Source of the DNA: Microbotryum violaceum | Lineage: Eukaryota | Length of the DNA stretch: 64,000 nucleotides | Direction: 5' to 3' | Assembly (NCBI GenBank): GCA_001244265.2 | Contig: CDLV01000009.1 | Coordinates: 186,001-250,000 of the forward strand | Part shown: positions 1 to 45,135 of the stretch, piece by piece | Numbering within the stretch: position 1 is the stretch's first letter | Layout: each line of letters begins with the position of its first letter | Notes under the pieces: model-generated | What the model saw: the letters and a program-made list of their open reading frames with translations, nothing else | Databases searched by the model: none | Told to the model about the DNA's origin: nothing | Program-made: the position numbers and the translations under genes

Positions 1-1646
1 GTTCTCGAGATCAGCATGCATCACAAAGGTGTCGCTAGTGAGCGCGAGAAGGCGGACGCGTACTCCAAGGTGCTCCGCACGTTATCGCCGGACACATCCC
101 TATGCTTCAACCTTCCCGCCGGAGTGGTCCTCCCACCCGAGCTAGCCAAGTATGCACCGGTCATCCATGGGGTCACCCCGGAGGCGGTCCAGATCAACGG
201 TAACACCCGTTTCAAGTTCGTCGTGCGATGCGCCAGCGTGGAGGCTCTTGACAAGGTGCATGAAGCGGCGACCAAGATCGAGTGGCAACGCTCGCCTGTC
301 CAAGTCCGCAAACGCCTGGCTTTCGTCAAGATTGTCGTCGAGTTGCGTTTCGTGATCAGCCCCGACGTCGATTACACGACCGACCTCCTTTGGACGAAGC
401 TGCAAGGTCTCGTCGCACAGATCACCGCCGGCGGCCACAGCTGCTCTTTGCTGCAACTCCAGCAGCCCCTCCACGTTGTACAGGACTCCTATTTGGTCGC
501 TCGAGGCAACTACTCAGCCATCGTCAGGTTTGACAACGACGACCTCTTCAAGAATCAGGGAGCCCAGCTTCGACAAATTCTCCCGACGAGGATCGACCTC
601 CGGGACGACTCGCCCAAGTCACGCCACTTCGACACGACTTCGAGTCCGAAGCTTCTTGTCGCCGATGCGGCTTCGTAGGCCACATCGACAGCTGCGTCCA
701 AAAGGCGGTCCAGCGTCAGCAGGCCGCCCAGAAGAAAAACAACAACCAAAGGCCCCAGGCCGAGCCCCAAAGCAACATCGAGCAAACCTCGACCCCCCAA
801 AAACAACGCAGTGATGTAGCCTCTCCCTCTCCCCCAATGTCTCCTGTCGCGTTCAAGCGTTCAAAGAAGAACGCATCTCCCTCAAGGGACACTAACAACT
901 CACCACGAGTCTACCCCACTCGTTCACAAAGCTCTACACCCACAGCATCCGCCCCTCGCGGTTTCATCGTCGCCGTGAACCCATTCGCAAGTCTGGCCGG
1001 CGACGTGGCCGAAGAGGCGCAGGAGGAGCCCGCTCAGGCTCTCGAGGACGACGAGGACGCGATGAGCGTAGTCGAGGCACAGCTGGAACAACAGCAGGAG
1101 GTGCCGCCGTTGGAGCCTTCGGATCTGTCGGATCTGCAGGACCGCAGAGCGGAGGGGAGCCAGGAGGAACACACGGAGACGAGTGACGCGGAAGAAGGGG
1201 AATTGCAGTCGGCCGAGACGGGCACTGTGCCTGTGGTTGTTTCGACGACCCCTGAGCTGACGCGGTCCCGATCGGCCAGTCACCATCAGCTTGATATGGA
1301 CGGCCTTCCCGACGACTGGATGAATCGTGTGTCGGACCGCGAGCGCAAACAGGATGCTGGTCTGTACGATGAGATCACCGAGTTGGACCGCACCCCGTCT
1401 GTAACCGGTTGGATGCCTTCGCCGTCTCCAGGTCCAGTGTTTGATCCCGAGCCCGAGCCCAAGCAGGAGGTGGACAAAGGAAGTTCCCAGGGTCTTCGCC
1501 GGTCCGAGCGTATCCAGCGTCTCACCAGCGTTGCGCGCACATCGGACTGGAACGAATCGACTGCTGCGGACCCGCTCCCCTCACCCACATTCGGACCTAT
1601 GTTGTCCATCAAGGGAGCTGCTGCTGCAACGAAGGCGCAATCGTAA
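1..1646 (+). pseudogene. LINE ORF1 (gag-like, CCHC zinc knuckle), frameshifted near 600; 5' end probably outside window
   Basis: ORF 16..678 is open from base 1. Shifting -1 at about 600 gives ...SCRRCGFVGHIDSC (Cx2Cx4Hx3C, from 657), which runs in frame into ORF 837..1646 (acidic, low-complexity tail). Lies directly upstream of an APE ORF. Confidence 0.75.
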
Positions 1647-2690
1647 TGATTGACTTCATCACCATGACCTGGAACGTCAACAGGGGCTTCAATACCCCTG
1701 AACGACGTCGTCGGCTTCTTTCGTATATCACTTCGCTCACACCTCCCCCTTCTGCTATCCTTCTCCAGGAACATAATGTTCCTAAAGCACGGCAACCTCA
1801 CATACGCCACGAGTACGCCCAGTCCCACCAGGGCGAGGCCTACTTTTCTCAACACTGCCTCACTTTGATTCCAAGCTCTTCTCCTCTTCTCGGTGGTCAT
1901 CGTCGCACGCGTCAGTCTCTTGGCGGGCGCTTACTCGTGACCACCTTCGATGTGCGGGGTTCGACGGACGTCGTCGAACTCAACAATATCTACGCTCCGG
2001 TTCAACCCGCCGAGCGCCTCCTCTTCTTCACCTCCCTTCACTTTCGGGCGACCGTCTCCTCTCATATTCGGTTCATCGCGGGAGATCTCAACGACTGCCC
2101 TATTCCCGCGGTGGATCGAGCGCAACAGGTGGACCGCCCGAACACCCACCACTGGCCTGTGCTTATGTCTCGGCTTGACGGGGCGTACACGGATGCCATT
2201 CGGCTCATGCACCCACTGTCGCCGGCGACCACGCGCCCGCATCTCAGCAAGGATGGCCAGCTCATTTCGCGCGCGCGCATCGACTTTGTTCTGGTGCAGC
2301 GGCGACACGAGCGACGGATCGTTTCTGCTTCTACTCTGTACAATATCTCTCGACCCATGTCGGATCATCGACCGGTTATGGTCACATTTAGGCTGCGCGC
2401 AAGTGGTGCCGAGGTCGAAGAGGAGCTCTGCCTTCCCCAGGCGGCGCATTTTCTGACCCGCATCAACTCGTCGACCTTCAAACACGCCGAGTTTAAGGAG
2501 TTCGTCACTCCTCTCCTTGAGCAGGCGCCGTCTGGGGATCCGGTCGCGGACCTTCAGCGCGTACTCTCGGAGTCTCGGGTCCAAGCTCTCGAGCTGTCTC
2601 GGCGTCTGTTTCGGGAGCGCAACGCCCTCGAGATGATGCTGGTATCTCGACTGCAGGACATTGAGTCTCGTCGGGTGCTGAGCCCCTTCG
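1646..2690 (+). mobile_element. LINE ORF2 N-terminus: APE endonuclease (L1/Tx1-like), truncated before the RT domain
   Basis: APE motifs TWNV, LQE, NIYAP, GDLN, RIDFVLV, SDHRPV. The start overlaps the ORF1 stop (TAATG, 1644-1648). Coding character ends at about 2690, just before a T13 run. Confidence 0.9.
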
Positions 2691-2705
2691 ATATTATCCA
2701 TGTGA

Positions 2706-4670
2706 TTTTTTTTTTTTTGTATGAAACTCATCGCTAATTTGCAAGACGAGAAACCCCCCTACGGAACTAAAGGTGATGTTGCCCAGTATGCACGTTGATG
2801 ACCACAACCGCCGCTCGATGCGTTGTAACTAGCAGAACAGACCAACCCGATACATCCGAGTTCAAGTCCCCCCACCCACGGTTGCTCCCTCCCAGAGACG
2901 AATGAAAGGAAGATTGAAGATAATACACGGGGAATCTGGAAACGACGGAAGAAATGTTGGTGGTGGTACATGTGTTGTACAGGTGAATCCGATCATAGTT
3001 GTACAGTTGAACCTTCTTCGATCTTTTGACTTCAGACCCCCCTGAGACTGCCATACTCCTTGAGGCCCTTAATTCTTTGAGACGCGTCGACCAAGGCCTC
3101 CGATGGCACAAACATCCCGCTCAATCCGAATGATTCACGTGGTCCAAAAGGGGAATGTAACCCCCTGCGACCGCAGCAATCACATACCCCTTGTACCCGT
3201 CTGCGCTGGATCTCCACCGCGGAGTCCAACCCCCTTTTCGGTTACCAAAGTCTGCCCCCCTCGCGACCGCACGACCCCAGATCACCCCCATTTCAATGAC
3301 TGCAACTGCGAAACAGGCCTACTTCGCACAAAAACACACAATCCAGAGATTTCCGGGGAAAGTCACGGAGCATGTGACAGTCCATTGGACACGCCTCGGT
3401 CGGGTGCAGCGCGGGCGGGTGGCCGTCAACACCGGCGCGCGGCTGGAGACAAGGGCGGGGTATACCTTCCGCAGGGGCCTCGCTTCCCTGCGGCGTACTC
3501 CCAATCTCGGAACGCACACTCGAGTCCCCTTGTACGTGCAGGTGGTTCCCAATCACCGCAGATACTGGGGAAAGAAGGAGCATGAGGCCCATGACGGTGA
3601 TGTCATTGGGTGGGACCTCGCTCGAGTGTGGATGTGTATGGCGGTTCGGTACCCGAGTCACCCGCCGCGGGGCCGCGACTCCGAGCGAGCAGCAAAGCAA
3701 GGAGAGGCGAGCCACGCAGGCAGTTTGTGCCGGCCTTGAACAGGAGATCACGGGGTCGCTCGACCGAAAGAGAAGACAGACCCGGCCCTTGAGAGGAGTG
3801 GAAAACTCACGATATAGTCCAGGAGAGGGCCAAGGGGATCCGTTTTCGCTGTGTGTCATCGTGATGTGGCAGAAGCTCGAACCAAGGGCGACAATGCCCG
3901 CCGGCGCAAAGAACCCGAGGCTCCTGGGGAGTACGGAAGCCTATGAGGAGGAATGGCAAAAAGAGCGAGAGAAAACAGGTTCAGTATTCTGGCGTGTTTG
4001 GGAGACATTTTGGAGATTGAGAAGGAGGGAAAAGGGACTTGTGATTTTTTGGGGGTTTGGTTTTTGCTTGGATAGGGAGGGAGCGCCATCTACTTCATCG
4101 CGCCAGTCTGAGCTCCAACCTCTCCTTCAGTCCCGCCATCTCCTTGTCCATGCTCGACATCGCTCTGGCGTGGCGATGGAGATCCCAGCGTCGGTTGCTG
4201 AGAGTGTCGAGCGCCAGCGCAATGAAGGCGCGGATTGGACGCTTTTTCGACGTCGGAAGGCGAGCGCGCAGTCGAGGGAGGCCGTGCTCGATCTGAAGTG
4301 CCGTGTAGTCGAGGTCGAGGATCGACACGACCCCAGCGCGTCGCAGATAATGGACCTAGCTGCTTGCCAAAATTGAGAAGAGTCAGGGCAATCATGCCAA
4401 AAGTGAGTAAAGTCATCCTCCACCCCTGCCAGGCTGCATGCCTGCACAAGGCAGCAGGCTGAGTCGCCATGCCGCTGCACAAACTGGCGCTTCCGCGTTG
4501 GCGTGAAGTGGTACGCCAGCTTGAAGTGCACCTCGCGCTCGCGGGCCGTGGCGGGCCCGGTGTTGAACCACCCCCAGAAGAGTCGCCTTTCTTTGGGTGT
4601 GGCGAGTGATCCAGGGCGTTGTGTGTCGTCGAAACGTCGATGGTTGATGACGCGTCGAAGTCGCGCAAAA
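2706..4670 (-). mobile_element. 5'-truncated LINE: ORF2 C-terminus (zf-RVT-like Cys/His domain), long 3' region, A-tail
   Basis: Minus-strand LFWGWF...HFKLAYHFTPT...CCLVQAC...DDFTHFWHDCP..QFW, frameshifting near 4330 into the 4095..4328 frame (stop at 4095). A13 on the minus strand at 2706-2718. Flanked by an 18-bp direct repeat. Confidence 0.75.
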
Positions 4671-4688
4671 TTTTTTTTTTGTATGAAA
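2709..4688. repeat. 18-bp direct repeat T10GTATGAAA at 2709-2726 and 4671-4688 (candidate TSD or repeated LINE 3' end)
   Basis: Identical 18-mers are read directly at both boundaries of the minus-strand LINE fragment. Confidence 0.7.
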
Positions 4689-4767
4689 AAAAAAGATCGC
4701 CGCAAAAAAATGCTTATGTATACACCAAACGCGACAATGCGGGGTAATGCTTTTGCATCGCAGCAAT

Positions 4768-4899
4768 GCTGAGATGGTCGAGTGGTCTAAGACGGAGGAC
4801 TTAAGGTATTTTCTTTGGATCACTTGCGTGTTCCATTGAATATCGCTTTCAGGCAACCCTCTCCGGAAACGGGCAAGGGTTCGAACCCCTTTCTCAGCA
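4768..4899 (+). tRNA. tRNA-Leu(UAA) with a 50-nt intron (4806-4855)
   Basis: Acceptor stem GCTGAGA/TCTCAGC plus discriminator A; D-arm GTCG-AGTGGTCTA-AGAC; anticodon TAA at 4802-4804; long variable arm CCG-GAAA-CGG; T-arm AAGGG-TTCGAAC-CCCTT; TTTT terminator at 4908-4911. Confidence 0.93.
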
Positions 4900-5125
4900 A
4901 ACAACAATTTTGCCACTCGCCGGGCTTGGATTTGGGGCTTAACAACAATGAAGAGGTAGCTTCTCTCTATTTTTTTTAGTCACTCGGCGGCTGCTTGAAC
5001 GCGACTGCGGCAGACTGCGACCGACACAAATTGGCGAGGGCCGGAGAAGCGATCGATCGCCGAATCTCTCCCTTCGCTTCCGGTTCGCGACCACAGACTC
5101 GACGAACACCGACCCAGCAACCGAC

Positions 5126-6223
5126 ATGAGCTCGCACAGTCCGACTCCTTCACGCACTGCAGCCGCCCACCTAGTGAACACCACCTCGTCCTCTGCTCCC
5201 AACGATCTCGTAGCTTCTCGCTGCACGTCCTCCTCTTCGACGACGGACGATTGCGAATCGTTGTACCTCGTCGCGCAATCCCTGTTGGCACAGGTGGTGA
5301 CGCTCCTGGAGGATGTTGTCGTATCGGATCAACAACTGACTACGGTCAGTGAGTACGTTCCGGGGAGTACGATTGGGAAACACCTTAGGTCAGTACAGCA
5401 GCCAACGCTTCTCCGAGAGAGAGGATGACGTCGCTTGCGAGCGCAAAGAGCAACATCGAGTCTAGGATGTGACGCGGCACTTTTGGCTGATTTAAGAATC
5501 TGATCCTGATCCTACAGACACCTGCATGATCACTACCGACTCTTATTGGACTCGTTACTCCTCGCAACGCCACACGACCCGTCGTCCTCCTCGTCCTCGC
5601 CGTCCCCGGTCGAGCTCTCCTACGACGTTCGATCGCGCAACATCGCTTCCGAAACCTCCCACAAAGCCGCACTAGAGGCCTTCATCCAACTCCAACACCG
5701 TCTCGAGACCGAGACGAGGAGTGGGACCGCGATCGAGCCCGATCGGACGATCCGGTTGGAGGCGGTCACACCGTTCAAGGTTCGCGTCGAGTCGAGTTGG
5801 GCTAGAGAGGTGGGTTGCTTCCCTTCCTGGATCGAAGGGCATGACCGAGAATGCTGATGTGTTCAGTTGTGTCCCGTCACCACGCACTCTGTCCCTCGCA
5901 GCTCTGGTTCGTGAGCTTGCATGCGACACATCATTTGGCGCTCGTGAGGGTCAGTTTCTTCATTTCAACCCAAACTCAAATAATGATCCCACAACTTGAC
6001 CTTGACCTCGACTTTAACCCATTCCCAGGTCGTAGCAACCGAACTAGGCCTCACCGTTCGGGACGAGTTTGGAGTGGCCCCTTCGACGCTGGTCGCACGG
6101 ACCCAAAAGCACGACGACGAGACGCAGACCCGATCCGAAGCGAAGGACAAGGTCGAGCACAAGATCAAACGAGATGAGCAGAAACCGGGGAGGAGTGCCA
6201 AGAGGAGGGAATCCAAGTTGTAG
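5126..6223 (+). CDS. DinB/YfiT-like four-helix protein (exons 5126-5388, 5518-5809, 5902-5949, 6029-6223)
   Basis: The spliced product has STIGKHLRHLHDH, LSYDVRSRN, RELWFVSLHATHHLAL and FGVAPST. Three GT-AG introns restore the frame. Confidence 0.7.
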
Positions 6224-6812
6224 GATAGATTTCGCCTCGGCGATCGCGCATCGCTGTCGAGATCATTAGAGGGCCACTGGAATGATATTGCATTATGGCT
6301 ATTCGCGAAGGAGAAGTATGGGAGAGACATGTAGGACCGACAATAGTCAAGTGAACTCGTCGGGAAAGTATCAAGGAAGAACACTCCGGCTTAAGATGGG
6401 TCCCTCGTGTGTACGGGTCACTCTACGATACAGGGGCCAACACTACCTGGGCTCGATCATGGAAAGTGATACAAGAGGTGGTGCTTTGCTTCTTTCCTCA
6501 CTTTTTGACGGAGAGGAGAGAGGCGAAAAGCTGTGGCGATCGAGAAACGAAGCGATCCTGACCGGAGTCGCAGATGCTCGTGCGAGAGAGAAGAGGAAAG
6601 GAAAAAGGGCGTCACTTCGCTGGCGCGTCCGGGTTGCGCGCCGCGTCTAATTGGGCATTAGGACTGCAAGTAATCTAAAGGGGAATTGCGCCGTGAAAGG
6701 GACGCGTCGCGCGGTTAACTCTTCAATTTGGGTTCGCGTTGACGCGTCGGCACAAGTCAAAGCTCGCGCTCAGTCGTGATCGCACTCCCTTCCGCTACGA
6801 GTACACCCAGTC

Positions 6813-8601
6813 ATGGCAGCTATTCTAGATCATCAAGATGGCGACACCCCCATGCTCGATGTCCCCCACCCGGCATTGGACAAGGGCAAGTCGAAGGCAA
6901 GAGCGAGCGCGAGTGCGAGCAATGGTCTGGACGCGTTGGCGATGGATGTCATGCCCTGGGTTGAGAAGTACAGGCCGGTCACGTTGGACGATGTAGTCGC
7001 TCACAAAGACATCATCTCTACTAGTAAGTTCTCAGCCCGAGGGTGCCTTCACCCGGCGAGCAGGAGAGCCTTGGACTGGCGAGGACGACTCAGCACGGGG
7101 CAGCCGGATCAGACGAAATTGAGTTGTGTTCTAACACCCACTTTACCCCTTGACGCAGTTGATCAATTCATCTCCAAATCGAGGGTACCCCATCTCCTTT
7201 TTTACGGGCCCCCAGGAACAGGCAAGACCTCGACGATCCTCGCCGTAGCGCGAAAGATCTATGACGGTAACGAAGCGAGCATGAGGAACAACTGTCTAGA
7301 GGTCGGTTTCACTCGATTTAATAGAAACCGTTTCCCTCACCTTGAAGTGACTGACCTTGTGTTCTGGGGTACCGGCAATCTCCACAGTTGAACGCCTCGG
7401 ACGATCGTGGTATCGATGTCGTACGGGAGCAGATTAAAAACTTTGCTTCGACGAGAATGTCCAATGCTGGAACGCGAGTCCGAAACCCACCCTGTTCCCT
7501 CGGCCTATTCAACCCTTGCTAAACTGCGCTCTTCTTCGATGAGGACAGTGCCGGATTCAAATTGATCATTCTTGACGAAGCCGACCAGATGACCTCGGCC
7601 GCTCAATCCGCCTTGCGACGAGGTGAGCTTGCTCGAATCTCCCGAACCGGAAGAGGGAGTTTTCCACTGACCAAGAGTCTTTCTCCTCGCAGTCATTGAA
7701 CAATACACCAAAAATGTTCGCTTCTGCATCATCTGCAATTACGTCAACAAAATCATCCCCGCCGTGCAATCGCGATGCACTCGCTTTAGGTACCTTTTTT
7801 TTTTTTTTGAATGTTTTGTCCGTCCACGGCAAGCAATGCTGAATAATGTCTGGTGATCCTGCAGGTTTGGTCCTCTACCCCGGCCCGAAGTGGAGAAGCG
7901 ACTGAACCATGTGGTTGATGCTGAAAAGTACGTTTCGTCGATGGCTCGGACAGAGAAAGTTGGGGGTTGATGCTGTTCTCCTCGGCGATTACGTTCTTAG
8001 GGTCAATTTGACCGAGGACGGACGGCAGGCACTGCTGAAGCTCTCGAAGGGGGATATGCGACGCGCTCTGAACGTACTGCAGGTCAGTGTTCGGGCTCTG
8101 TTGGGTCAGGGCATGTGCCGCGCCAGTGCTGAAATTTCGTTCTCGCCACTCCAATAATAGGCATGCCACGCCGCATACGACGTCACGGACGAAGCCGCCG
8201 TCTACAATTGTACCGGCAGCCCCGATCCAGCCGACATCGAAGCCATCATGCAATCAATGATGAACGAATCCTTCGAGACGTCGTATCGACGCATCTCGTC
8301 CCTCAAGATGGAAAAGGGTTTGGCGTTGCAGGATATCATCCAAGGGTGTTTTGATTTCGTCGCGACGGTTGAGTTCCCGAGGCAGACGAGGGTCGTCTTG
8401 TTGGATCATTTGGCGCAGGTCGAGTGAGTGATTGGTTCCCACATCGGATGGTCGGAAAGCGCTTTGGGGTATATCGCTGATCCTCCTGAATTCACTCTAC
8501 TGATCAGGCATCGCTTATCGACCGGTGCGAGTGAGAAGTTGCAGTTGACGGCCCTGCTGGGAGCGACCAAACTCGCTATCGAACTCAGTCAGAACAAGTA
8601 A
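6813..8601 (+). CDS. RFC3: Replication factor C small subunit (yeast Rfc3 / human RFC5 type), multi-exon
   Basis: PWVEKYRP, PHLLFYGPPGTGKTSTILA, ELNASDDRGIDVVREQIKNFAST, KLIILDEAD, SRCTRFRF, GDMRRALNVLQ; stop TAA at 8599-8601. Confidence 0.93.
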
Positions 8602-14131: not shown

Positions 14132-15471
14132 GCTGCCAACGATCGATGCAGTGCCAGGTCGTCGAAAGAGTCGATGCGAACAGGTGGTAAGTGGTAAGCG
14201 GTCCAGTGACCAAAAGTGAATTATTTTGGAAGGATATGGCAACTGCGACTTCTCGAGACAAGCTAGTCTAGCGCCGAGTTTCAGGCGGTGACTCTACCCG
14301 ACCTCTAAACAGGAGAACACGCGTAGAAAGGCGTAGCCACAACGGACGCCCCTGAGGCCGGCTCACGAGGACCCTGCACCGGAGCCGAGCTCCTAGTAGT
14401 AGACACGGATCGTGAGATTGCTTACATGAGGATACATGTCGTTTGCAGCAGCAAAACCCGTCACTTTTTCTGGACCTAACTGACAAACCAACGGGTAGTC
14501 CAGTTATTTGGCAAGGTGACCGAGTACCGGACTGCCCGTCCGTTCCGAGACTCTGACCCGCTTGACCCGCTTTCTCGTCCAAAGAGGACCATCGAAGATT
14601 ATCGGTTGCACTTGGTTTTTGGATTCTCAATGAACGACAGCTTCTACTTCGTCTAAGATCAACAGGAGTATGTATAGACCGGAGCTCGGACACCCGCCGA
14701 GAGAAAACATTGCGGTCATGGCCGTTTGATGAGGCATCCCGATCGCGCAGAAGTCAATACAGTGCACTTGTCAGGGCTCGTTTGACGCCGTTTTCATCTG
14801 GACCTCTGGAAAATTTTCGATGATCATTTGCACAAAGTCAACAATACGACCCGAAGCGAGGACAAGTGAGCGACGGGTCGAGTCCCGGTGCTTGTTCGGC
14901 TCATCCGCTCCTTCTACAATTGTTAAGCCTTTCGGAGGGGCGACGAGATGGGCAAGTGCACCAAAACTTGACTCCCCAAGCAAGATGACGTCGTTGTCGG
15001 CCAGCGAAAAGAGATCCGCCGACGAGTTGCCGGTGTCGACGAGTGTGTAGTCCTTAAAGTCGAGCAAATTCAGAACGGTCGAGTTGGCGTTCTCCATCAC
15101 GACCCGAATGTCGAGCTCGGCGGATGCTGCGCGCAGTTTGGAGATGATATCGTTGATGTGGGAGAGCTGCATCGAGCTGCGGGGTGCTTCCATCGTTCCT
15201 TCATACATCGCCGCGTCTCCCCATCGGATGTGTATCCCACAAGAGAGCGCATTTCGACTCGCCGCATTACCTGGCGGCAGGAGTCGCTCCAGCCTACGGC
15301 CATCCAGGGCGTCAATCCGCTGCCGTTCAAAGTCGCGGTAACAGTCGTTGAGATCTTCAAAAAGTTTCCCCACAACGTCATCGAGAATAATGGCGCATCC
15401 CCGCTGATCCATCCGCCGTTTCACTGCAAGCCCATATTCGTACCCCGAGCCCACTCGACTGCAAGCCCCTC

Positions 15472-15674
15472 TTTTAGAACCCTGAAGCCCAGGGACGAGA
15501 TACGTAAGTATGAGAGCCGAAGATGATAGTAAAGATAGTTGGAGAAAGGAGAGAAGGGCTACGGAAGCGCGCGCGAGGCAGGCTCGAGGCGCGCGAGGCA
15601 ACCAATACCAACAACTAGTAACTAATCATATTCGGGAATCCAAGCGGGATGAAACATTAATATACTCTCTGACA
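15472..15674 (-). repeat. 3' LTR (TGTCAG...CTAAAA), preceded by a G7 PPT at 15675-15681
   Basis: Matches the split 5' LTR with about 5 substitutions and one 3-bp indel, counted by eye. Confidence 0.92.
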
Positions 15675-18656
15675 CCCCCCCGTGCTGTCATACCACTGCA
15701 CCCCGTAAACCCGAGTTTTCCCGATGGAATAGGAACGGCTTGGGACGCAAGGCTTTGGTGAAGATGTCGGCAAACATGTTGCCGGTGTCGATGTAGCGGA
15801 CCTCGATCTCTTTCTCAGCAACCCTCTCGCGGACGTAATGCTCCGAGATACGAACGTGACGAGACCCCTGATAATTGGTTGGATGTTGTGCAAGAGCCAG
15901 CGAACCTTGATTGTCGCCGTAGAGCACGACTGGGCCGGAGACCGGGGCGCCGAGTTCAGCCAGGAGTTCGCTGAGGTGGATGGCATCACCACTTGTGTAC
16001 GAAAGAGAGAGGTACTCGGCGTCTGTGGTCGACTTAGCCAGCCTGTGTTCGCGTTTCGAGCACCAGGCGATTGCGGCTCCGGAGTAGATGAACGCGTAGC
16101 CCATGGTTGATCTCGAGGTGGTCAGACAGGCTCCCCAATTCGCATCCGAGTAGCCATGGAACTCTTTGCTGGTCTTGCGGTAGGTGAGACCCAAGTCCAG
16201 AGTGCCTTTGATGTAGCGAAGGACCTGCTTAATTGCTGTCCAATGCGCGGGACCTGGCTGTTGAGAGAAGCGAGCGAGGTAGCTGACCACGAAGGCAAGA
16301 TCGGGGCGAGTCTCGACTGCGGCGTACATCAACGAACCAATGGCCTGCAAGTAGCGCGTACGGTCCTGAGGAGTGGCAGCCGAGTCCTGGAAGTCAAGGA
16401 CGACACCCGGCTGCATTGGAATACTTGCGGGCTTGGCGCCGGCAAATTGGAACCTAGCGAGGATGTCCCGAAGGTAGCGTTCCTGCGAAAGCGTGATGGA
16501 TCCGTCTTGTCCACGCTTGACTCAAATGCCTAGGATGTATTCGGCTGGGCCGAGACGTTTGATGCCATAGGCGAGTTCCAACGCGTCGAGCGCCCGGTCG
16601 ATCTCGGCGACTGAGGGCCCTACCAACAGCAAGTCGTCGACGTACAAGGCGATGTAATGGGATTTTCCGTTGTGTTCTCGGCGGTAGATGCAGATGTCAG
16701 ACTTGGTAGGGACATAGCCGAGAGACCGCAGAGTCGAGTCGATCTCGGCGTTCCAAATTGTGCCGGCCTGGCGAAGGCCGTAGATAGATTTGGATAGCTT
16801 GAGGATCTCACCAGGCAGGTCAATGCCCTGAGGGACGCGTATGTAGAGAGGTTTGTCAAGTTTTCCGTGCGGGTACGCCTTGTTGACGTCGGCTTGATGG
16901 ACGTGATATCCGTTGGCCGCGGCAAGTGCAATGAGGGCACGAATGGACGTGAATTTGACGACGGGGGCGTAGGTCTGTTCGAAGTCGAGGCCGGGACGTT
17001 GAGCGCATCCGTGAGCTACGAGTCTGGCTTTGTGATCGGTGATGTCCCCGTGCTGGTTGCGCTTAGTCCGAAATACCCAACCCGATCGCAAGAGGATCTC
17101 GCCTGAGGGGAGCTCGCAGGATTCAATTATCTTGAAGACCTTGTAATCGTTGAGAAGCGGATTAAATTCGTCCTGCGCAGGAGCCCGCCAAAGCTCTTCT
17201 TGTCCCGATCGAATGACGTTGCCCCAATTCGACGGGTCGCGAACCACTGCCAAGTCGTGATCGGCAAAGCCCTCCTTGGTGGCTGCAAAGGCGAGGAGAA
17301 GGCTTTTGAAGGAGTCGGTGGGTCCATCGGGACCGTCGCTATTCTTGCGTGATCAATGTGGGAGCAAGCTTGCGACGAGTCCTGGGGCCTTCAATGATGT
17401 TACTAGCGTTGACTTCGCCGTACTTCCCTGGATCTGGACCAACCTTCGCGACGTCGCCGTATTCCCAAGTCGGCTTGGCTTTGGCGAATGGGGCGGGAGC
17501 CGGAGGTGGTTGCGTCATGTTTGCGTCCGCGACCGAGGCAGGGTCGTCGTCGTCTTCCGATGTAATTGTTGCTGGTGGTGAGGGAGCTTCCGACGTGTTC
17601 GTTGCCGGTGGTGCGGGAACTTCCGCGGGTGCCGGTGCCGGTGCCAATGGAGCCTCGACTGGTGTAGAGTCGACGACTGGCGGCGTAGGTTCGACGATAG
17701 ACGGACTAGCGCGGCTGTAACCCGGGATCGACGGCGGCGCGGCGCGAGCGGGCGCGGAGAAGGGGAATTCGGTTCCGAGAAAGGACACATCTCGACTCAG
17801 GCAGACTCGCAACGAGGAGGGATTGAGGAGACGATAGGCTTTGGCGTGTCTATCGTAGCCGACGAAGACCATCGGGATGCCTTTTGGATCGAGTTTGTCG
17901 CGCCGGTGGGCAGGCAATGTGGCCCACGCGCGGCAACCGAAAACCCGGAGAGCCGCTACGTCTGGAACACCGCCCGACCATCGAGTGTTGGGGATGGCCT
18001 CGCCCAAAGCCGCGTGGGGTGAGAGGTTCTTGGCGTGGATGTAACACATGGCCGCCTCGTCCCAGCACGATCGTGGAAGTCCTGAGTGGGACAGGAGAGC
18101 CAAAGTGCCTTCCACGATCGACAAGTTGACGCGCTCCGCTCAACCGTTCTGCTCAGGGGTGTAAGGGATGGTCAACTCGCGACGAATTCCGCGCGCCACG
18201 CAAAAGCCGTTGAAGGCGGTAGAGATGTATTCGCCTCCGTTGTCGGAGCGTAGAGTTTTGACTCGGCGCCCAGTGGCGTTTTCGATCTCCAAAAGCCAGT
18301 CCTTGAACGTTTGCAGAACCTCGCTCTTGTGCCCTATGGGGTAACCCCAAACCTTGCGCGAGTGGTCGTCGATGAACGTGACAGACAAGGTAGCGTTTGT
18401 TCGAGGCGGATTCCAGTCCTCGGGGAAGGCCGCTGGTGCGTTCGGTGGAAGGAGATGACGGGGCCTCGGGGCCTCTTCGTCGCGGATTCGCTGGTTCCTG
18501 ACCAGCTCGTCATATTGCTCTCGTGTGAGAGTGATGGAGCCGATGGCTGAGACGTCGATGTTTTGGCGTTGGGTCGATGTCGATGACGGAGGGGGAGTTG
18601 ATACCCTGTCACCGGGCCCGGCCATCGTGTTGACGTCCGCCGCTGGTAGGTCGGTT

Positions 18657-18668
18657 GGGCTCATAACC
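18657..18668 (-). other. Primer binding site GGTTATGAGCCC (half-tRNAiMet type)
   Basis: Abuts the 5' LTR; complementary to the initiator-tRNA anticodon arm GGGCUCAUAACC; contains the gag ATG (18664). Confidence 0.9.
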
Positions 18669-21460
18669 TTTTAGAACCCTGAAGCCCAGGCACGAGATAC
18701 GTAAGTATGAAAGCCGAAGATGACAGTAAAGATAGTTGGAGAAAGGAGAGAAGGGCTACGGAAGCGCGCGCGAGGCAGGCTCGAGGCGCGCGAGGAGGCA
18801 ACCAATTACCCTAACTAGTTACCCTAATTATTATTACCCTAACTAGTAAAAAAAAGCGGTGAGTTAAGGAATGTACCTAAAATCGCTGTTTTTAACTAGG
18901 TTGCGGCCCTCCGGGCCGCCTGTGGTGGATGTACCAGCATACTGTTGTGTCTGCCGCACCTGCCTGTGGTGTTGGGGTTCGGATCAGAAGTCATGTACGA
19001 GCCCTATGGTGACTTTTGTATTTTCCGCGCCGTTCCAACGAAGCTACAGCGCTCCCAGTATTCTCCTTCTTTTTTCGCTCAGATAAAACAATGCTTCCAC
19101 TCATATTGCATTTAATGAATTGCAAGCGCGTGGCTTTGCATGATATTGCTTCTACAGCAGAGCTCTGCTTGACGTGCGAGGCGAGGGCTGGCTTTTGTCA
19201 CGTGATGCGGTGCGCCGGCGGTGGAGTGTCATTCCGGCAGTCGACCAGCGGCATTAGGGGCTGAACAACAAATCAAACCACGTAAATAATCCTGCGCCAC
19301 TCCCTCGAACCTTTCCTTTCTCCCTCCCACTCTCATCCGACACTCATTCAAGAACAAACCTTCGCTACTGTGTAATGCCCCGGTCCCAAGGTCGCCAGGG
19401 AGGGCCATCGCAACCTCGCCAAGTCTTGGGCGCGAGGATAGCGCCGTACCATGGGCCGTACCATGGGCCAGCTCGAGCGCCCGCTGCTGGGCGCCCCGCG
19501 GCTCGACCCTCCTCTTCGTCCCGCACCGATCAACAGAATCAGCCCCCCGGCGAGTCATGACAACAATTCAACCGATCTTGGCATTGCGACACGTATACGA
19601 GCCCGCCGTGCAGCTGTGCAGAACGGACAGCGTGGTCAGCGCGATGGCCAACTCGACGCTGGGCTCGCCCCACCACCACCTCCGCAAAGGCGAGTGCGCC
19701 GGGCTCGAATCGCGCTCAAACCCCTCAAGCCCCACGTTTTCGCAGGGCAAGGTGCAGCTACCTCCCCCTCCCCAGCCCAATCTCGAGTATCGGCAGCTTC
19801 TTCAAGGCTTGGATAGCGGTCAGTTGCTCCGTCCAACAACATTCGTCTGCAGTAGACCCACATGCTGAACTGTTCTACCCACCCACACAGAAGCTAAAGC
19901 ATTCCGCGAGAATGCCCGGTCTTACAATAACGCGTTGTCCTTTACTTCGCTCGCTGCCCACTGGGACCAAACCCAAGTGGGCACTCTAGGACCCCCGTGT
20001 TTCGCGTGTTTGGTCGCCTCTACCATCGACTCGGCGCTCTGATCCCTGCCGTGAATCAATGCCCAACCTTTGCCCAGACATGGCTGATCGACTCGGCCGA
20101 GGCCACCGACACTCGACTTGAACCCGACGGCGCAGACAGTCACATGCAACGATCTACTTTGACCAAGCTCGAGTCCATGTTGCGTACCAAGAATCACTTT
20201 GTGAGGGAGTTCGCATCGGCCAAACCTCGCGCAGGTTGGGATACGGCCAAAGAGTGGATCCTGCGCCTCTGCCTCCCGCCAGACCGGGACCGACGCACCC
20301 ACAACCCTCCTACATCAAGCACAGAAATGGCGATGCTTATCTGCGATTCCGACACCAACACGGGAGATCGTGGACCGCAAGACCTTATTCTCCGGGTGCA
20401 CGGTGATCGATGTCCCGATGGTCGGCCCAAGTACCAAATCGTTAGCTCGCTCCATCTGTCCGCGATGCCTCTTCGTTACCCACTACTTTTTCCTGCAGGG
20501 GAAGATGGCTTCCACCCCAACATTCCTCTTTGCGGGTTCCACCAAGCCGGGCCGCCAATCGCCAGAAACCGAGAGCAGATCGACAATGGTGTCCAATTGC
20601 GCGAGGTACTTGCCGGTCTTGGTCTGGATGACGAAGACGAACAGGAGGACGAAGACCGCGACAATGAGGATGAAGACGGCGAGGAAGGGGACGAAGAGGA
20701 TGGTGATGGCGAACGTACGCTTCTTCAGCTCTTTCTCTGATGTTCCATTCTGTCTAAGGCGCAAGCACAGACTGACATTGAACTTTTGAACACCTAGGAC
20801 GAAGGTCAAGTAAAGGGGTCGAGGTGGCGAGTCTCGCGTTCACCATTCTTTGTGCACTACTTGCCAAACGCGACGAGTACTTCTCAATCCCGCATTGCAC
20901 CCAACGTCCCTTCCTGGAGTTTGTGATTTACGGATATCCTCCCAAGTCGAGACCGATCGACTCAACACATCCGATTGCATCAAGAGAACCTACGCCTCAC
21001 CACGACCCAAGGCATCAACGGCTTGACCCCGAACCAAATCGCGACATCATGCAGCGATACCAGGATGCGATGGCGTGCGTTGTCAAACATGGAAAGCCTC
21101 CGCTGCTGATCACGACGACGTACGACCCCGACTCACCGGAAATCAAGGCTGCACTGGGGCCGATAAAGCATGCAACCGTCCGGATCTCATTGCACGAGTG
21201 TTTGAAGCCAAGTCCGGCAACAAGCGACATGCAGGCTGTTTCGGCAATGAATGTAAGATGAATGGATTTTGTTTCTTTGCTGTATTTCGTATCGTCTTAA
21301 CCTCTGCGCTGATATCATGTAGACTGTTCGATTATCCTGCTATTTTTTGAATTTCATCCTCCCGTTAATTTAACGGGTTCCCACTGGGTTATACCAACAA
21401 CTAGTAACTAATCATATTCGGGAATCCAAGTGGGATGAAACAGTAATATACTCTCTGACA
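18669..21460 (-). repeat. 5' LTR split into 18669-18805 and 21392-21460 by a Helitron
   Basis: The two halves join as ...ACCAA^TACCAAC..., as in the intact 3' LTR. Confidence 0.9.
18806..21391 (+). mobile_element. Non-autonomous Helitron copy 1 (RepHel N-terminal remnant; no HUH catalytic motifs or helicase seen)
   Basis: GKVQLPP, FRENARSYNNALSFTS, GRLYHRLG, PLRYPLLFP.GEDG, YQDAMA..KHGKP, RPDLIARVF; hairpin CCCGTTAA-T-TTAACGGG (21361-21377) plus CTGG (21384-21387); inserted at A^T in the LTR with no TSD. Confidence 0.88.
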
Positions 21461-22701
21461 CCCTCTGGCCACGGCGTCTCGATGAGATTGGGGCAAGTAG
21501 TCTAAACACTCGCAAATGATCAGCTTCATTCACTGCACTCATTGGACAGAGGGATTTGGGATGCGGCGTACCAGAGATGCGACATATTCTGCCGGCGGGG
21601 ACTTGCCAAGCCTCGACACCGAGCGCGCCAAAAGCTTTGGGGTTCAGGACCTCGTCGTGGTAGTAGCCATGTTCGGACAGCGTTTCTCCGAGGACAAAGG
21701 TCGAGTCAAAAAAGATGGAAAGGATGGTGCCACCCTTGATGCGCTGCAGTGTTGAGCCAATGCCCTCCTCGTTCGCGACGGAGCGGATCCACAAACGTGA
21801 CGTCTTGCCGATCTTGACAGATGAAGAGTGCCCTCCGTCTTTCCATGGATTGGCCATTTGCTCCGATGTTGATTTATCATGAAGGAAGGTGGCGAGCAGT
21901 AAGTTGCTGACGAAACCAGAGACTACACCGACGAGGAGAGCCACCTTCGCCGTTGGTCGCCACATGCCAACCACGCATCCTGGCCGACCCCCTCATATCT
22001 AGTGGACATGTAGTTGAGCTACGGATGCCTTCAGCATCCTCTTGCGGCTGCGTATGTGAAGACAGAACGTCATCGAGGGTTACGAGGGTAAGAGTACTGA
22101 CTGCACGTGTGGCGGCAGCAGTGATTCCGACTCGGCGTGGAAATCGTGCTGACACAGACCATCGACGCCATCGACTGAGCATCGACACGAGTGCGTCTGT
22201 TGCAGTTCCATCGACTGTCGGCGGGCGAAAGAGGGTGGAAGGAGACAAGAACCAGCCTCGGGTTGCGGGTGTAAGACTAGTCCCAACGGTGACGACATGG
22301 CTATGTCGACGGCCCTCCTGACTGTGCACGGGCTGTTTCCGATTGTCTCTCCTATCCACGTAAGACGGCCCCGGACAGCTAAGGTTCGACGAAGGCTGAC
22401 ACGAACCGCGATCCTACTTTATTTGTGGTAGTTGTAAAAAAAACCATATCGAATCAATCCTCGACGTCATAGAAACAGGTAAAGCCTGCACGTGACCGAA
22501 TGGCACCTTGTCCGTCTCGACGAACGTCCTTGGCCGACCCCCCCCCCCAGGCGGCCCCAGCGCGCCCGTCGAGCTATGTGGATCAGCTCGGGCTTGGAGC
22601 TCAGAGTACCGAATGTGCGAACACGCAAGGCCACGTTGTGTATGGTCGAATGCGATGCATTGCGATGGTTCAGAGCCCAATTCCTTACCCACGCCTTGAT
22701 C

Positions 22702-34540: not shown

Positions 34541-36548
34541 CTATTCAACCTGAGAAGTCCGCCAAAAAAGACCGTCAGAGGGAATGATTGTGCTGTGTGA
34601 CCCTGAAAGTACTCACCTGGACTGTAAGATCGACTGGGGCATCGAAATCGATAAAGTCGTCCGTGAAGCGTTCGAGGCTCTCGGTCTTGGTCTTTCCTCC
34701 ATCTTCAAAGACGAACCAGCTCGGCTTCTTCGAGTCGAAAGGTTGCCAGGCCTCAACGGGCTTGCCATCAATGGCAAACCGACTCCAGTTCTCGCCAAAA
34801 ACAGCGGCCGAAGCCTCCTCGTGGGACCCTTCGTCCCAGCAGGGCTTGGTGTTGAAGATGAGCGGCAATTCGATCGTGTGCCTACGCAGAGGGTAAAGAG
34901 ATACCATCAACCTCCGATCGCCAGGCTACGATAAGAGTTGAAACCCACATGGATCCGAGTTTTAAGGGTCCACGAGTAACGCTGTCGATCTCTGCGCGGC
35001 AGCGGTAGAAGTAGACGGTGCAGGGCTTGCCACTTTTGGCGTTGGGCTGACTCGCCATCGCCTTGGCCTGATTGTAGGCCGGTTGGGAGAAGATCTGATC
35101 GTGTAGGAGGCGGGAGGCAGGCGCTTCGACGAGGGACACTTCTTCCGGGTGAGGCGCACCCCTCAGATACTTTTTGTTGATCTGCGCTTTGTATCTCGGC
35201 AGGACATTCGCGACATATCCATCGAACGCGGCGGGTGTGTGCAACTTTCGGGTGGCGGCGGGCCAAAGGCAGAACCAGCGTTAGTGGGAAGAGAGTCGAT
35301 GGTGTGTGGGGTTGCTCACCTTCATCCCAGCAGTGAACATGGTCCCTTCGTCCTCGTTCGTCCCCAGAATGACTCGCTCGATCCAAGGGTCCCACTGCCC
35401 GTCCCTGAGTTTGTCTACGACTTTGCGATCCCACGTGGCGTTCGGACCTTCCTCGATCGAAAAGCCGACACCGGCGAACGTCTGGGACGCCGTGTGCGCA
35501 GCCAGGATTTGCTCCATCGGCGCCTTCTTCAACGCCTCCACCCTTTCAGCCGCCGTAGGCAGTTTGTCAGCGCCGATGGCGGCCAAGATGGCGGCGTATG
35601 CAGGGAACGCTGTATCGACGGGACGAGTTGACATCGTTCCGGCTGCACCGGATTGCATGATCGCTTTTTGGAACAACCGGCGACCAGAGCATAGCAGAGT
35701 GGATACCATCCAACCCCCTGCCGACTCTCCAAAGCACGTGACGTTGTCCTTGTCGCCACCAAAGGCACCGATGTTCTCTTGCACCCATTCGAGCCCCTTG
35801 ACGCAGTCGTAGACGCCATAGTTGCCACTCAGCCCATCCTTGTCAACCTCTTGTAGGTCCTTGGAGCTCAAGAAGCCAAATGCGTTGACCCGGTAATTGA
35901 TCGCAGCAACGACGAACTTTCGACCGAGCTTGGCCTGATCACGAATCCAGTGCGACGGATCGTAGATGATCCGCGAGGTCGAGCCGGTGTTGAGCGCCCC
36001 TCCGTAGATCCAGACCAGGCAAGGGAGAGCATCGCCTGCCTTGGTTCCTTCGGGTGTGTATACATCGATCGTATGCGATACCTCGGACATTGCCACGAAG
36101 TCGCGACGATAGTCACCCAGGCGGGCCTGGTAGAGCGCTTCCGAGGCTCCAACAGGCTGGGGAAACTTGGTGCCGAACTCAAAGCACTCGATAGGCTGGG
36201 TCCAAGGATCCGGTGAAGTAGGTCGCTCGAATCGACCAGCTTTCGCAAAAGGGATGCCCTGCAACGCGGGCCGGCGAATTGGGGAATCGTATCAGCGGGT
36301 TCCGATCAAGTGGGGATGCGCCGGAGCCTCGGCAATCATAAGCAACCGGACCGGCTCTAGCGAGTAGCTACCGCAGTTGTGTTTGGGCATGTCTGCTGCT
36401 GCATCTGCGTACTTACAAGCCATTTATAGATTGGTGCTTTTGTACCACCTTTCAGAGCTGCACTGCTTGCATTGCGCAACGGGTGCGCATCCTCAAAACC
36501 TTGGACTGGACCAGCCGAGGTCTGTACGAGAAGCGTAGACGAGGCCAT
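34541..36548 (-). CDS. Type-B carboxylesterase B, convergent paralogue of A (5 exons)
   Basis: WLGIPF, WIYGGAL, NYRVN, NVTCFGESAG, GTNEDEG, MHTIEL; final micro-exon V-E-stop at 34549-34541. Confidence 0.9.
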
Positions 36549-42600: not shown

Positions 42601-45135
42601 TGCATGGGGCGGCTCGACTTACATTCGTTCGCAATGAGGGCCTCGAATCCAAAAGAGACGGGCTGCGCATACGACAGCCAGCGGAACCAAGGCTTCATGC
42701 TGGGGCGAGGGATCGTGTACCCGACGTAGATGGCGATGATTAAGACAAGAATACCGGCCATCATGGTGGCAGGAGGCTGTCAAAGTAGCGTAATGAAGTG
42801 TGCAGGTCAGCTCATGTCCATTCAAACCCCATAGACCGATAAAATGCGCGGATGAACCTCTTTGCGGTTGATGGAGGCGAGCGAACGGAAGAGCGCGAGC
42901 ATGGCTAGATTGGCAGCGAAGGTGAAGAGCAAGAAGACGAAGAACTGTGATGCCGAGTTCTGCAGACCACTCATGAAGTAGAGAATGACGTCGAAGAAGA
43001 AGATGGTGACGAGTTTAAAGGGGATGTCGACCAGGTTGAGCGCAAACATATCGGCTGAAGGATGCAACATCGCGTACTGGCGTTGGCGGACAATGATGGG
43101 ACGCTGACTGAAGGCGGTGGTGATCTCGGCCATGCCGGTGAACGAGTTGTACAGGATCGCGAAGAAGACGACACCACCGCGTGAGAAGAAGCCGGAGGTG
43201 TTCTTAGGCATTTGGAAATAGACCGAACCGATGATGAGAGCTTGGAAGATAGCGGCGATGGTCGTGACCATGAGCGTTGAAAGTTCACCCATCTGTAGCT
43301 GGTATCGACGCTTGCAGGCGAGACGGACTTGCATCGGGTACGAGATGAGGTACTTGGAGTCCTTGCCGAGGTGCTTGGCCTTCTCGAGCTTGGCCGACTC
43401 GCGGAATGCCTCGAGCTGCTCGTGGGCGCCGTCTGATTCGTGATGCTGGAGCGCCTTCTCGACTTCGGCGACGTTCTGCTTGCCGAGCTTGCTCTTGCGC
43501 CAGTGCTCGGCGAACTCGTCCGCCGTCCTGGGCACACGACCTTCGAAGCCCTTACGGACGAATCGACCCTTGGGGTCAGTAACGGCGACACAGAAGTCGG
43601 CCGATGTCTGACGAGGCTGAGGCTCGTAGCCCATGTCGACAAAGTATTGCACCGCGTCTCCCCTGCAAATAGGCAATGTACAAGGCAACGCAGTCAGCTC
43701 CAATTGAGATCAGCCGACCGCCGTTGCCAGTATCGCAGCGCGACTCACATCTTGCCGAAAAAGGCCATGCGACCGTCGTAGATAATGCAGACCTTGTCGA
43801 ACAGCTCGAAGATGTTTTGACCGCACTGGTAGATCGACAAGATCGTCGTCAAGTGCGAGATGTCGGTCGCGATGCGCAAAGCGCGCGTGTACTCGAGAGC
43901 GGTCGAGGCATCGAGACCTCGGGTCGAGTTGTCGTGACAGCCAATCTTGCAGCCCGTCATCAACAGCTCGGCGATCGAGACACGTTTTCTCTCACCTCCG
44001 GAGACACCACGAATGATGTCGTTTCCTACTTTGGTGTTGAGGGTGTGTCGCAGACCAAACAGGGTGACAAGCGTGTCCTTGACGAGGTTGGATCGCTCTT
44101 CGCGAGAGCCCAAGCGGGCACCACTGGCGGGCGTACGCGTTCTGGCGGCAAAGTCGAGGGTTTGACCGACCGTCAGACTGGGAAGATGGTGGTCGTCCTC
44201 AGGGAGGTAGGCGACGTCGCCGGCGTCTACGCGGTGTCAGGGAGAGATCGTCAGCTCCAAAGGATCAGAGACAGGGGCTTCGCACGCGAATGGGGGCGAA
44301 AGAATAATACTCACGATGCTTGCGCATCTCATCGGCTGAGGCACCATCGAACGAGACGGCACCTTCGACCGAAGTGAAAGCCTCGGTATTGTTGGACAGC
44401 GTCTTGAGGAGCGAGCTGCAACCACTCCCAGGTCTATGGACGAGTAACGGGATGGGGGTTGGATGGGGGTTTCAAAACGTCAGCGTCGACGTTGAGAAAA
44501 TCTTGAAAATCGCGACCCGCCAATAATGCTTGTGCGAAGCAGCAAATCACTCACCGTCCGAGAACGAGCAGCATCTCTCCGGGCTTGACCGTTCCCGTGA
44601 AATCGACGAGGATGCTCTTGCGCACGGGGTGGCGCATCGACTTGATCATCGAACCCAGACGGAGCGGTGCGGAGAGCAAGCTACCGAGGGTGTCGCCGTA
44701 GCTGAGGCCACTTCCTTCACCGGTGACGTGGAGAGCCTTGAACGTGACACCGATCTCGCGACGCTGAAGGCCTTGGCTATCGGCCTTGCGGATGAGGTGC
44801 TTGAGGTGGGTCTCAAAGTCAAAGTCTTCGGCGGTCGGGTCCTGCGTCGTGGTGCTATACGAGCTCTGGACTCGCGACAGTCGACGTTCGAGCTCGGCGG
44901 CACCTTCACGGTCAAAGTAGTTGAATGGTTCGTGTCGGGTCGCGGTCGTGGTGCGTTGCAAATCGTTGCGCTCGCCGACGGTCTTGAGAGGGGGGGCGAG
45001 GTTGCCCGGCCCACCTTGCGCGGCTCCATTGGTGGTGCGCTTGTCATGCGCATCGGCGGCGGCGGTCGGGCTCGCATACTCGGCGGGGGTGTTGGGAGCG
45101 CGCGTCTCTTCTGAGGACGAGAATGATCGCGACAT
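39696..45135 (-). CDS. Full-size PDR-type ABCG multidrug transporter (Snq2/Pdr5 family), multi-exon
   Basis: NBD1 GRPGSGCS, VSGGERKRVSIAE, DNSTRGLD; NBD2 GESGAGKTT, LNVEQRKRLTIGVEL; two TMDs and PDR_CDR loops; stop at 39696-39698. Confidence 0.95.

Follow-up and report, generated by a model that had tools for sequence, protein, structure and literature searches.

Two LINE fragments of one family beside a tRNA-Leu gene in Microbotryum violaceum: a target-site-duplicated insertion in an A/T tract

Introduction

In compact genomes, the region upstream of tRNA genes receives the insertions of several retrotransposons, among them yeast Ty1 and Ty3 and the dictyostelid element NLTR-B (PMC5911963). 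The non-LTR elements tabulated as tRNA-targeting in a 2018 review are TRE5, TRE3, NLTR-A and NLTR-B only (PMC5911963). Dictyostelium TRE5-A has two ORFs, the second with an endonuclease, a reverse transcriptase and a zinc-finger region, and its copies lie upstream of tRNA genes and are transcribed in the opposite direction (PMC5911963, PMC5006619), at a reported distance of 40-54 bp (PMC5911963). TRE5 is strictly associated with tRNA genes across the genome, keeps a fixed opposite orientation, ends in oligo(A) and makes an ORF1-TFIIIB contact. NLTR-B, an element with an RNase H domain that inserts 39-64 bp upstream, and Ty1 and Ty3, which are LTR retrotransposons using integrase, are unrelated to the Microbotryum element described here.

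The canonical L1 nick falls at TTTT/AA with poly(A) priming, and L1 target-site duplications (TSDs) vary in length. A/T tracts are described as favoured by L1-clade endonucleases and by Zorro3, a fungal L1-superfamily LINE of Candida albicans that goes into A/T homopolymer tracts, including intergenic poly(A), in intergenic and promoter DNA and has zinc knuckles in its ORF1 (PMC3956500, PMC7175516). L1-clade elements have also been reported from Microbotryum violaceum itself (PMC3956500). Here we describe two LINE fragments next to a tRNA-Leu gene in this basidiomycete, for which a first-pass annotation had suggested Pol III-guided insertion, and we weigh that suggestion against a simpler preference for A/T-rich DNA.

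Results

The window is the whole 64,000-nucleotide stretch that was analysed. Its sole Rfam match is RF00005 at 4768-4899 on the forward strand (43.3 bits, gathering score 29), and its only tRNA gene called by ARAGORN with introns permitted is an intron-containing tRNA-Leu(UAA) at the same place, so that the tRNA-Leu gene read by eye beside the LINE segments is borne out by both programs; in its default mode, which ignores introns, ARAGORN calls no tRNA gene in the window. A TTTT run follows the gene at 4908-4911. By tblastn, the LINE sequence in the window is limited to two fragments, A and B, which adjoin each other upstream of this tRNA gene. The features of the locus are:

1-2698, forward strand: LINE fragment A, matching residues 94-954 of the relative P0001 (tblastn)
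1-1646, forward strand: ORF1 of fragment A, frameshifted near 603 and closed by a TAA stop at 1644-1646
1646-2698, forward strand: N-terminus of fragment A ORF2, matching P0002 residues 1-351, with an apurinic/apyrimidinic-type endonuclease domain
2699-2708, no strand: 10-nt spacer, CATGTGATTT, separating the broken fragment A from the left repeat
2709-2726, no strand: left-hand repeat copy (18 bp), interpreted as the fragment B TSD
2727-4094, reverse strand: 3' region of fragment B, some 1.37 kb that follows the ORF2 stop
4095-4670, reverse strand: C-terminus of fragment B ORF2 (tblastn with P0001), 5'-truncated at 4668-4670
4671-4688, no strand: right-hand repeat copy (18 bp), at -97 to -80 counted from tRNA +1
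4689-4767, forward strand: native spacer 5' of the tRNA, 79 nt, 42% G+C
4768-4899, forward strand: tRNA-Leu(UAA) gene (Rfam RF00005, ARAGORN -i), with a 53-nt intron at about 4806-4858

Fragment A, which contains ORF1 and the endonuclease part of ORF2, is directed toward the tRNA gene, its start being cut by the window edge within ORF1. Relative to P0001 and P0003, tblastn places a shift of ORF1 from frame 1 to frame 3 at 603; a zinc-knuckle-like CX2CX4HX3C follows at about 657-695, no Pfam family was found for this ORF, and its stop overlaps the ORF2 ATG (TAATG). The start of ORF2 contains Pfam PF03372 (Exo_endo_phos; 1e-6, interval 1445-2737), and across the endonuclease region the fragment is 99% identical to P0001. 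The reverse transcriptase expected after the endonuclease is absent: the fragment is 3'-truncated inside ORF2 right after ...SPFDII, with homology to P0001 ending at 2698. Neither a 3' terminus nor poly(A) is present at this end, and 10 unmatched nucleotides, without a match to the LINE or to any known flank, join it to the flank. Fragment A thereby stops 10 bp short of a T13-GTATG-A9 tract, in the orientation opposite to B.

Fragment B spans 4669 to 2727 on the reverse strand, opposite to the tRNA, and comprises the C-terminus of ORF2 and a 1.37-kb 3' region; its tblastn matches agree with the first-pass reading of a segment transcribed away from the tRNA gene. Residues 1759-1871 of P0001 align to 4669-4331 with 98% identity and residues 1871-1949 to 4334-4098 with 100% identity, which places the 5' truncation at residue 1759 of 1949 and a frameshift at 4331-4334. 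The encoded C-terminus contains a Cys/His motif resembling the zf-RVT region of related families, and a search of representatives with it gave 35 matches, all to C-terminal parts of LINE-like proteins. Poly(A) is absent from the 3' end at 2727. The 3' region has no Pfam and no Rfam match, and its ORF at 3293-3940 (reverse strand) is without a protein homologue among proteins of near length; the 1.37 kb may be the LINE 3' UTR, though perhaps not all of it is.

In tblastn searches with full-length models, both fragments belong to one LINE family, which is matched only among Microbotryum gene models. The first-pass picture of two abutting L1/Tx1-type segments therefore stands as to their abutting and needs amending otherwise: the family is one, and the distal segment is truncated at its 3' side inside ORF2 and faces the tRNA. 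The parent family is a young, presumably recently active LINE of the L1 superfamily in Microbotryum, and both pieces in the window are dead copies. Judged by sequence similarity, the fragments are of the L1/Tx1 group, a placement that leaves Tx1-type and L1-type undistinguished; all named homologues in the searches are Microbotryomycetes proteins. The best match of known structure is human L1 ORF2p (8.7e-10, compared with 5.4e-8 for R2), and a protein-cluster search with P0002 returned only unnamed RVT_1/Exo_endo_phos clusters. Pfam finds RVT_1 in all four full-length relatives scanned and Exo_endo_phos also in P0002, P0016 and P0018; PF13966 (zf-RVT) is significant in the sister families P0016 and P0018 and not in P0001, P0002 or the window ORF. 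In the ORF2 alignment A1, three Cys/His positions, C1094, H1110 and C1115, show no variation. A profile of ORF2 built from a 15-sequence alignment gave 77 pattern matches and no confirmed one in bacterial and archaeal contigs, a result that is uninformative for fungi.

Elsewhere in the window the family leaves no trace. Searched by tblastn with LINE proteins, the 64 kb contain no reverse transcriptase, Pfam likewise gives none in the two fragments, and blastn of positions 1-5000 against the window returns no non-self copy. Of 161 tblastn matches to LINE proteins, 155 fall in 1-4700, and the other six, in 15703-18430, are the Copia parts of chimeric gene models. Such fusions of LINE gene models to Copia domains occur in, for example, P0076 and P0087, and adjacent locus tags are frequent in this and sister LINE families (BQ2448_1540/1541 and BQ5605_C057g12686/12687 are examples); together these suggest that LINE pile-ups are common in these genomes, with or without tRNAs.

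The 18-bp direct repeat, TTTTTTTTTTGTATGAAA, occurs in two 100% identical copies at 2709-2726 and 4671-4688, as had been noticed for the nearer segment, and these enclose exactly 1944 bp (2727-4670); no 18-mer recurred in any of 200 mononucleotide shuffles of positions 1-6000. With 4670 as the last inserted base and 4768 as tRNA +1, the distance comes to the 98 bp first given for a 5' end near 4670. Fragment B, which faces the tRNA gene head-to-head, is a true insertion flanked by a TSD, at -97 to -80. It bears hallmarks of target-primed reverse transcription (TPRT) in its exact 18-bp TSD and its 5' truncation within ORF2. The target, T13-GTATG-A9, is the top A+T spot in the window: the empty site reconstructed in silico has 27/30, 34/40 and 40/50 A+T, where the window averages 43%, and ranks first in the window at each length. 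The spacer at 4689-4767 opens with the remainder of the A9 run and contains an A7 run as well. Only six A/T runs of at least 8 occur elsewhere in the window, and none of them has LINE sequence. Read along its sense strand, B has A10 immediately before its 5' end and A13 at 8 nt past its 3' end. If the repeat is taken as the TSD, ...GAAA-3' forms the end of the priming strand, and this end together with the missing poly(A) makes the nick unlike the canonical TTTT/AA pattern of L1.

Set beside the described systems, fragment B shares with TRE5-A its position upstream of a tRNA gene and its opposite transcription, and the family shares the two-ORF plan, with endonuclease and RT encoded by ORF2. 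However, its target at 80-97 bp lies outside the TRE5 range, its 3' junction has no oligo(A), the association is with one locus rather than genome-wide, and orientation is mixed, B being opposite to the tRNA and A co-directional with it; a counterpart of the ORF1-TFIIIB contact is only hypothetical here. The likeness to Zorro3 lies in a fungal host, a zinc knuckle in ORF1, A-runs at or near both ends of the B sense strand and insertion into an A/T homopolymer tract, seen in a single insertion. Zorro3 differs in having two knuckles against the one CX2CX4HX3C here, and in combining a poly(A) tail with the lack of a TSD, whereas B is flanked by an exact 18-bp repeat and lacks a tail immediately at its end. 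Human L1 likewise yields 5'-truncated copies with TSDs, but its ORF2p is only distantly similar, within the RT core alone, and its T-run primer and poly(A) contrast with the ...GAAA end and tailless terminus of B.

Discussion

We consider it more likely than not that fragment B entered the A/T tract through a preference for A/T-rich DNA and not through contact with Pol III, and that fragment A is no second targeted event. A single locus of this kind suits ordinary insertion into an A/T tract at least as well as it suits tRNA-guided targeting, since no spot in the window is richer in A+T than the target and an L1-type preference for A/T accounts for the site no less well than guidance by Pol III. 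We infer the following course of events, the endonuclease preference included. An L1-type endonuclease would have nicked the A/T homopolymer tract within an otherwise 57% G+C region, and B, a copy presumably dead on arrival and 5'-truncated, would have been inserted by target-primed reverse transcription into T13-GTATG-A9, 80-97 bp upstream of tRNA-Leu(UAA), duplicating 18 bp of target; contact with the Pol III machinery would have played no part in the choice of site. Fragment A may go back to an earlier insertion that subsequently underwent deletion or rearrangement, or else to an insertion that was itself aberrant. Its opposite orientation and its break inside ORF2 argue that it is no second targeted event, and they remove the repeated insertion at one site that the first-pass annotation had envisaged, as A is no ordinary second insertion. 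Some observations pull against the A/T-tract account: both LINE fragments lie at most about 110 bp from the sole Pol III gene, which is improbable for a random window, the six other A/T runs are without LINE, the nick of B departs from the canonical pattern, and the 3' truncation of A has only putative causes. In favour of that account, rough arithmetic predicts that about 0.4 LINE ends across the whole genome would fall by chance in the 110 bp upstream of a tRNA, an estimate that uses figures for M. lychnidis-dioicae (26.1 Mb, 134 tRNAs and 392 LINE copies; PMC4469406) from which the genome of the window may differ.

That the family senses tRNA genes, or the transcription complex on them, and goes in at a fixed interval upstream, with repeated hits here, seems to us quite improbable. 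It would account for a TSD-flanked B at -97 to -80 in the head-to-head orientation of TRE5 (PMC5911963), for two same-family fragments ending less than 30 bp apart beside the only tRNA gene in 64 kb, and for the setting, a compact and gene-dense genome of the sort in which such targeting arose elsewhere (PMC5006619, PMC4469406). Yet the case is one locus, its target is also the top A+T site, the distance is about twice the 40-54 bp of TRE5 (PMC5911963), fragment A is reversed and ends abnormally for a second insertion, and the pile-ups common in these genomes neither require nor exclude tRNAs. Unlikely too, though a little less so, is a reading in which the 18-bp repeat is no TSD and the family 3' end is ...TTTCATAC followed by poly(A). 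An earlier, near-wholly 5'-truncated copy (8 nt plus A10) would have come first, and B would have entered its tail in the manner of Zorro3, gaining an A13 tail of its own. The A10 at the 5' flank of the B sense strand and the TTTCATAC and A13 at its 3' end fit this order, the canonical T-run primer for poly(A)-primed TPRT is restored, and Zorro3 is described with poly(A) on both sides and no clear TSD (PMC3956500, PMC7175516). The price is an 8-nt mini-insertion and two events of which neither shows a TSD, where a TSD is the simplest reading of a perfect 18-bp flanking repeat; moreover, the family 3' end is here judged from one copy and not from a consensus. Under the TSD reading, the family 3' end would be ...GCGATGAG without TTTCATAC or poly(A), with TSDs differing from copy to copy.

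Replication forks pause at tRNA genes, and LINE insertions independent of the endonuclease, with truncated 3' ends and filler, are established. Breaks at stalled forks near the tRNA gene could thus have captured LINE cDNA without an endonuclease, B being an unrelated later insertion; the 3'-truncated end of A, lacking poly(A) and carrying a 10-nt filler, fits. We hold this to be improbable, as a simple later deletion yields the same structure, the 5' end of A and any TSD lie beyond the window so that its mode of insertion is unreadable, and fragment B is left unexplained. Three further arrangements were rejected. Twin priming produces divergent fragments with adjoining 5' ends inside one TSD pair, whereas here the fragments converge and the TSD encloses B alone. 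Nesting of B in a full-length A fails because A is not resumed past 4688 and tblastn finds no RT-coding LINE sequence elsewhere, and inversion in place of the 3' part of A would give one copy of the 18-mer instead of the two direct copies seen.

A fungal or basidiomycete LINE that targets tRNA genes was not found in the open-access literature searched, outside of which lie subscription surveys of Microbotryum repeats, and the 12 of 24 supplementary files of PMC4469406 that were searched contain nothing on transposable-element positions relative to tRNA genes. The first-pass caution that one locus cannot establish targeting holds, because targeting is a property of the whole copy set of a family. 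There is only a slim chance, in our estimation, that this family is a tRNA-targeting fungal LINE with at least two hits at the locus that evolved apart from the dictyostelid TRE and NLTR elements. If it were, fungi would have their first non-LTR retrotransposon that targets tRNA genes, and such targeting would be known for the first time in a LINE from outside the dictyostelid amoebae; compact genomes would also gain another example of convergent 'safe-haven' targeting. On present evidence this is a locus where two ordinary dead LINE fragments sit in an A/T tract; as a well-defined insertion with exact boundaries and a TSD, it is a good seed for genome-wide mapping of the family in Microbotryum.

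Results

Judged by their sequences, fragments A and B, which lie just upstream of the only tRNA gene in the window, are two pieces of one LINE family.

Features of the window (coordinates, strand, description)
1-2698, +, fragment A: matches residues 94-954 of P0001, a gene model of the same family (tblastn, full-length relatives)
2727-4094, -, fragment B, 3′ region: the 1.37 kb that follow the ORF2 stop, down to the 3′ end of B
4669 to 4098, -, fragment B, ORF2 C-terminus: matches P0001 residues 1759-1949 at 98-100% identity (tblastn)
6780-7388, +, host gene fragment: AAA/Rad17-like P-loop exon, ~1.9 kb downstream of the tRNA gene
15471-21463, chiefly 15703-18430, -, Copia-type LTR retrotransposon remnant: RVT_2, 5e-47; retroviral SH3-like domain, 4e-25
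35281-36291, -, host gene fragment: carboxylesterase
40524-43709, -, host gene fragment: PDR-type ABC transporter
50478-51707, -, host gene fragment: DUF7729 protein

The endonuclease ORF of fragment A is 99% identical to P0001, which comes from M. silenes-dioicae, and all 29 of the 29 proteins found with this ORF at E <= 1e-3 bear Microbotryum names. LINE proteins gave 161 tblastn hits, 155 of them within 1-4700; the remaining 6, at 15.7-18.4 kb, come from chimeric gene models and align with their Copia part. The same searches map no LINE reverse transcriptase in the 64-kb window, so both A and B are dead. RVT_1 is present in the full-length relatives, and zf-RVT also in sister families. The best match among solved structures is human L1 ORF2p, and a review records L1-clade elements in M. 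violaceum (PMC3956500); assignment to the L1 superfamily is thus supported. A scan for the family in bacterial and archaeal contigs, a collection without fungi, confirmed 0 of 77 pattern matches.

In fragment A, ORF1 is frameshifted near 603 and contains a CX2CX4HX3C motif, and its stop codon TAA overlaps the ATG of ORF2 (1646) by one base (TAATG, 1644-1648), an arrangement which suggests that ORF2 may be translated by termination-reinitiation. The ORF2 endonuclease domain is recognized by Pfam (PF03372, 1e-6). Homology then ends abruptly at 2698, at a point where the relatives run on into reverse transcriptase; the tRNA-proximal end of A is an internal ORF2 break, not a 3′ terminus, and is joined via 10 unmatched nt. 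A later deletion or cDNA capture at a break are possible origins of this end. The 5′ end of A, with any target-site duplication (TSD), falls outside the window.

Fragment B lies in the opposite orientation, is transcribed away from the tRNA gene, and has a frameshift at 4331-4334. Its 1.37 kb past the ORF2 stop is long for a LINE 3′ UTR; searches of proteins, Pfam and Rfam gave no match to the region, which could be a genuine UTR or sequence brought from the flank of the source copy. An exact 18-bp direct repeat, T10-GTATGAAA, at 2709-2726 and 4671-4688, encloses precisely the 1944 bp of B, and no 18-mer recurred in any of 200 shuffles of 1-6000 (0/200). Such a repeat is the classical signature of a 5′-truncated insertion by target-primed reverse transcription. 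The duplicated target occupies -97 to -80 relative to the tRNA +1. The first-pass annotation, which had described a nearer segment bounded by an 18-bp repeat, 98 bp from the tRNA gene and transcribed away from it, had these numbers right, and its observation stands with the amendments made here.

The tRNA gene (4768-4899, +) is the single RNA gene that Rfam finds in 64 kb (43.3 bits). ARAGORN with introns allowed reads it as tRNA-Leu(UAA) with a 53-nt intron; by default the program ignores introns and therefore misses it. A TTTT run follows at 4908-4911, and the gene looks like a working one. The G+C content of the window, from this anther-smut fungus of the genus Microbotryum, is 57%, and because host gene fragments are found in it, the DNA around the locus is of an ordinary, gene-bearing kind.

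When B and one of the two repeat copies are taken out in silico, the reconstructed empty site reads ...A's end, CATGTGA, T13, GTATG, A9, GATCGCC..., followed by 79 nt up to the tRNA gene; the broken end of A would then have been at ~-108. At lengths of 30, 40 and 50 bp, this site has the highest A+T content in the window (27/30, 34/40 and 40/50), whose mean A+T is 43%. Nine A/T runs of at least 8 occur in the window, 3 at LINE junctions and 6 elsewhere; none of these 6 has a LINE (0/6), including a T14 run at 7795-7808 that matches the LINE target tract in length.

The Copia remnant, which has no tRNA gene nearby, carries two direct-repeat pairs (15471-15598/18668-18795 and 15605-15677/21391-21463), a pattern that suggests nesting or rearrangement of the element.

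Discussion

The locus is probably best explained by the ordinary insertion of an L1-type element, which would have landed in an A/T tract beside a rearranged older fragment. The fungal element Zorro3 is described as integrating specifically in poly(A) tracts of intergenic regions (PMC7175516, PMC3956500), and such a preference accounts for the position of B without Pol III involvement. Two features of the junction are unusual: poly(A) is absent at the 3′ end of B, and if the repeat is taken as a TSD, the element would end ...GCGATGAG and the priming strand ends ...GAAA-3′, not in a T-run. Canonical priming is given back if the element instead ends ...TTTCATAC plus poly(A) and B inserted into the tail that a tiny earlier copy had left, but this requires an 8-nt mini-insertion, and we consider it unlikely. 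Three other origins of the arrangement are rejected: twin priming would yield divergent fragments, and A and B converge; were B nested in A, A would have to resume past B, which it does not; after an inversion in place, the 18-mer would be present just once.

True Pol III-guided targeting, with repeated insertion at one site, was the earlier proposal, and we hold it to be very improbable. Since A ends in an ORF2 break, it does not record an ordinary second insertion, and with the two fragments opposed, repeated targeted insertion is not cleanly shown. The best tract and the only tRNA gene coincide, so that tract and tRNA are fully confounded here, and from one locus the targeting interpretation cannot be judged. 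TRE5 elements, as summarized in PMC5911963 and PMC5006619, lie upstream of tRNA genes at a distance of 40-54 bp and in opposite orientation, with an oligo(A) end and ORF1-TFIIIB contacts; B resembles them in orientation and the family in its general two-ORF architecture, whereas the distance and the tail of B differ. From the genome size, tRNA genes and LINE copies that the M. lychnidis-dioicae genome paper gives (26.1 Mb, 134 and 392; PMC4469406), rough arithmetic of our own yields ~0.4 LINE ends expected by chance, genome-wide, no more than 110 bp upstream of a tRNA gene, for a species that may differ from that of the window. One such locus is therefore unremarkable in a whole genome, yet improbable in one random 64-kb window. 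The 12 of 24 supplementary files of that paper that were searched hold nothing on transposable element positions relative to tRNA genes.

Among non-LTR tRNA-targeters, a review table names dictyostelid elements only (PMC5911963), and the literature searched holds no fungal tRNA-targeting LINE, so targeting here, if true, would be new. Several Microbotryum gene models join LINE and Copia domains (P0033, P0034, P0044, P0076, P0087), and adjacent locus tags are common among the LINE models, which indicates that pile-ups of LINE and Copia copies are frequent in Microbotryum genomes. The near-identity of A and B to a full-length copy indicates that the family was active recently.
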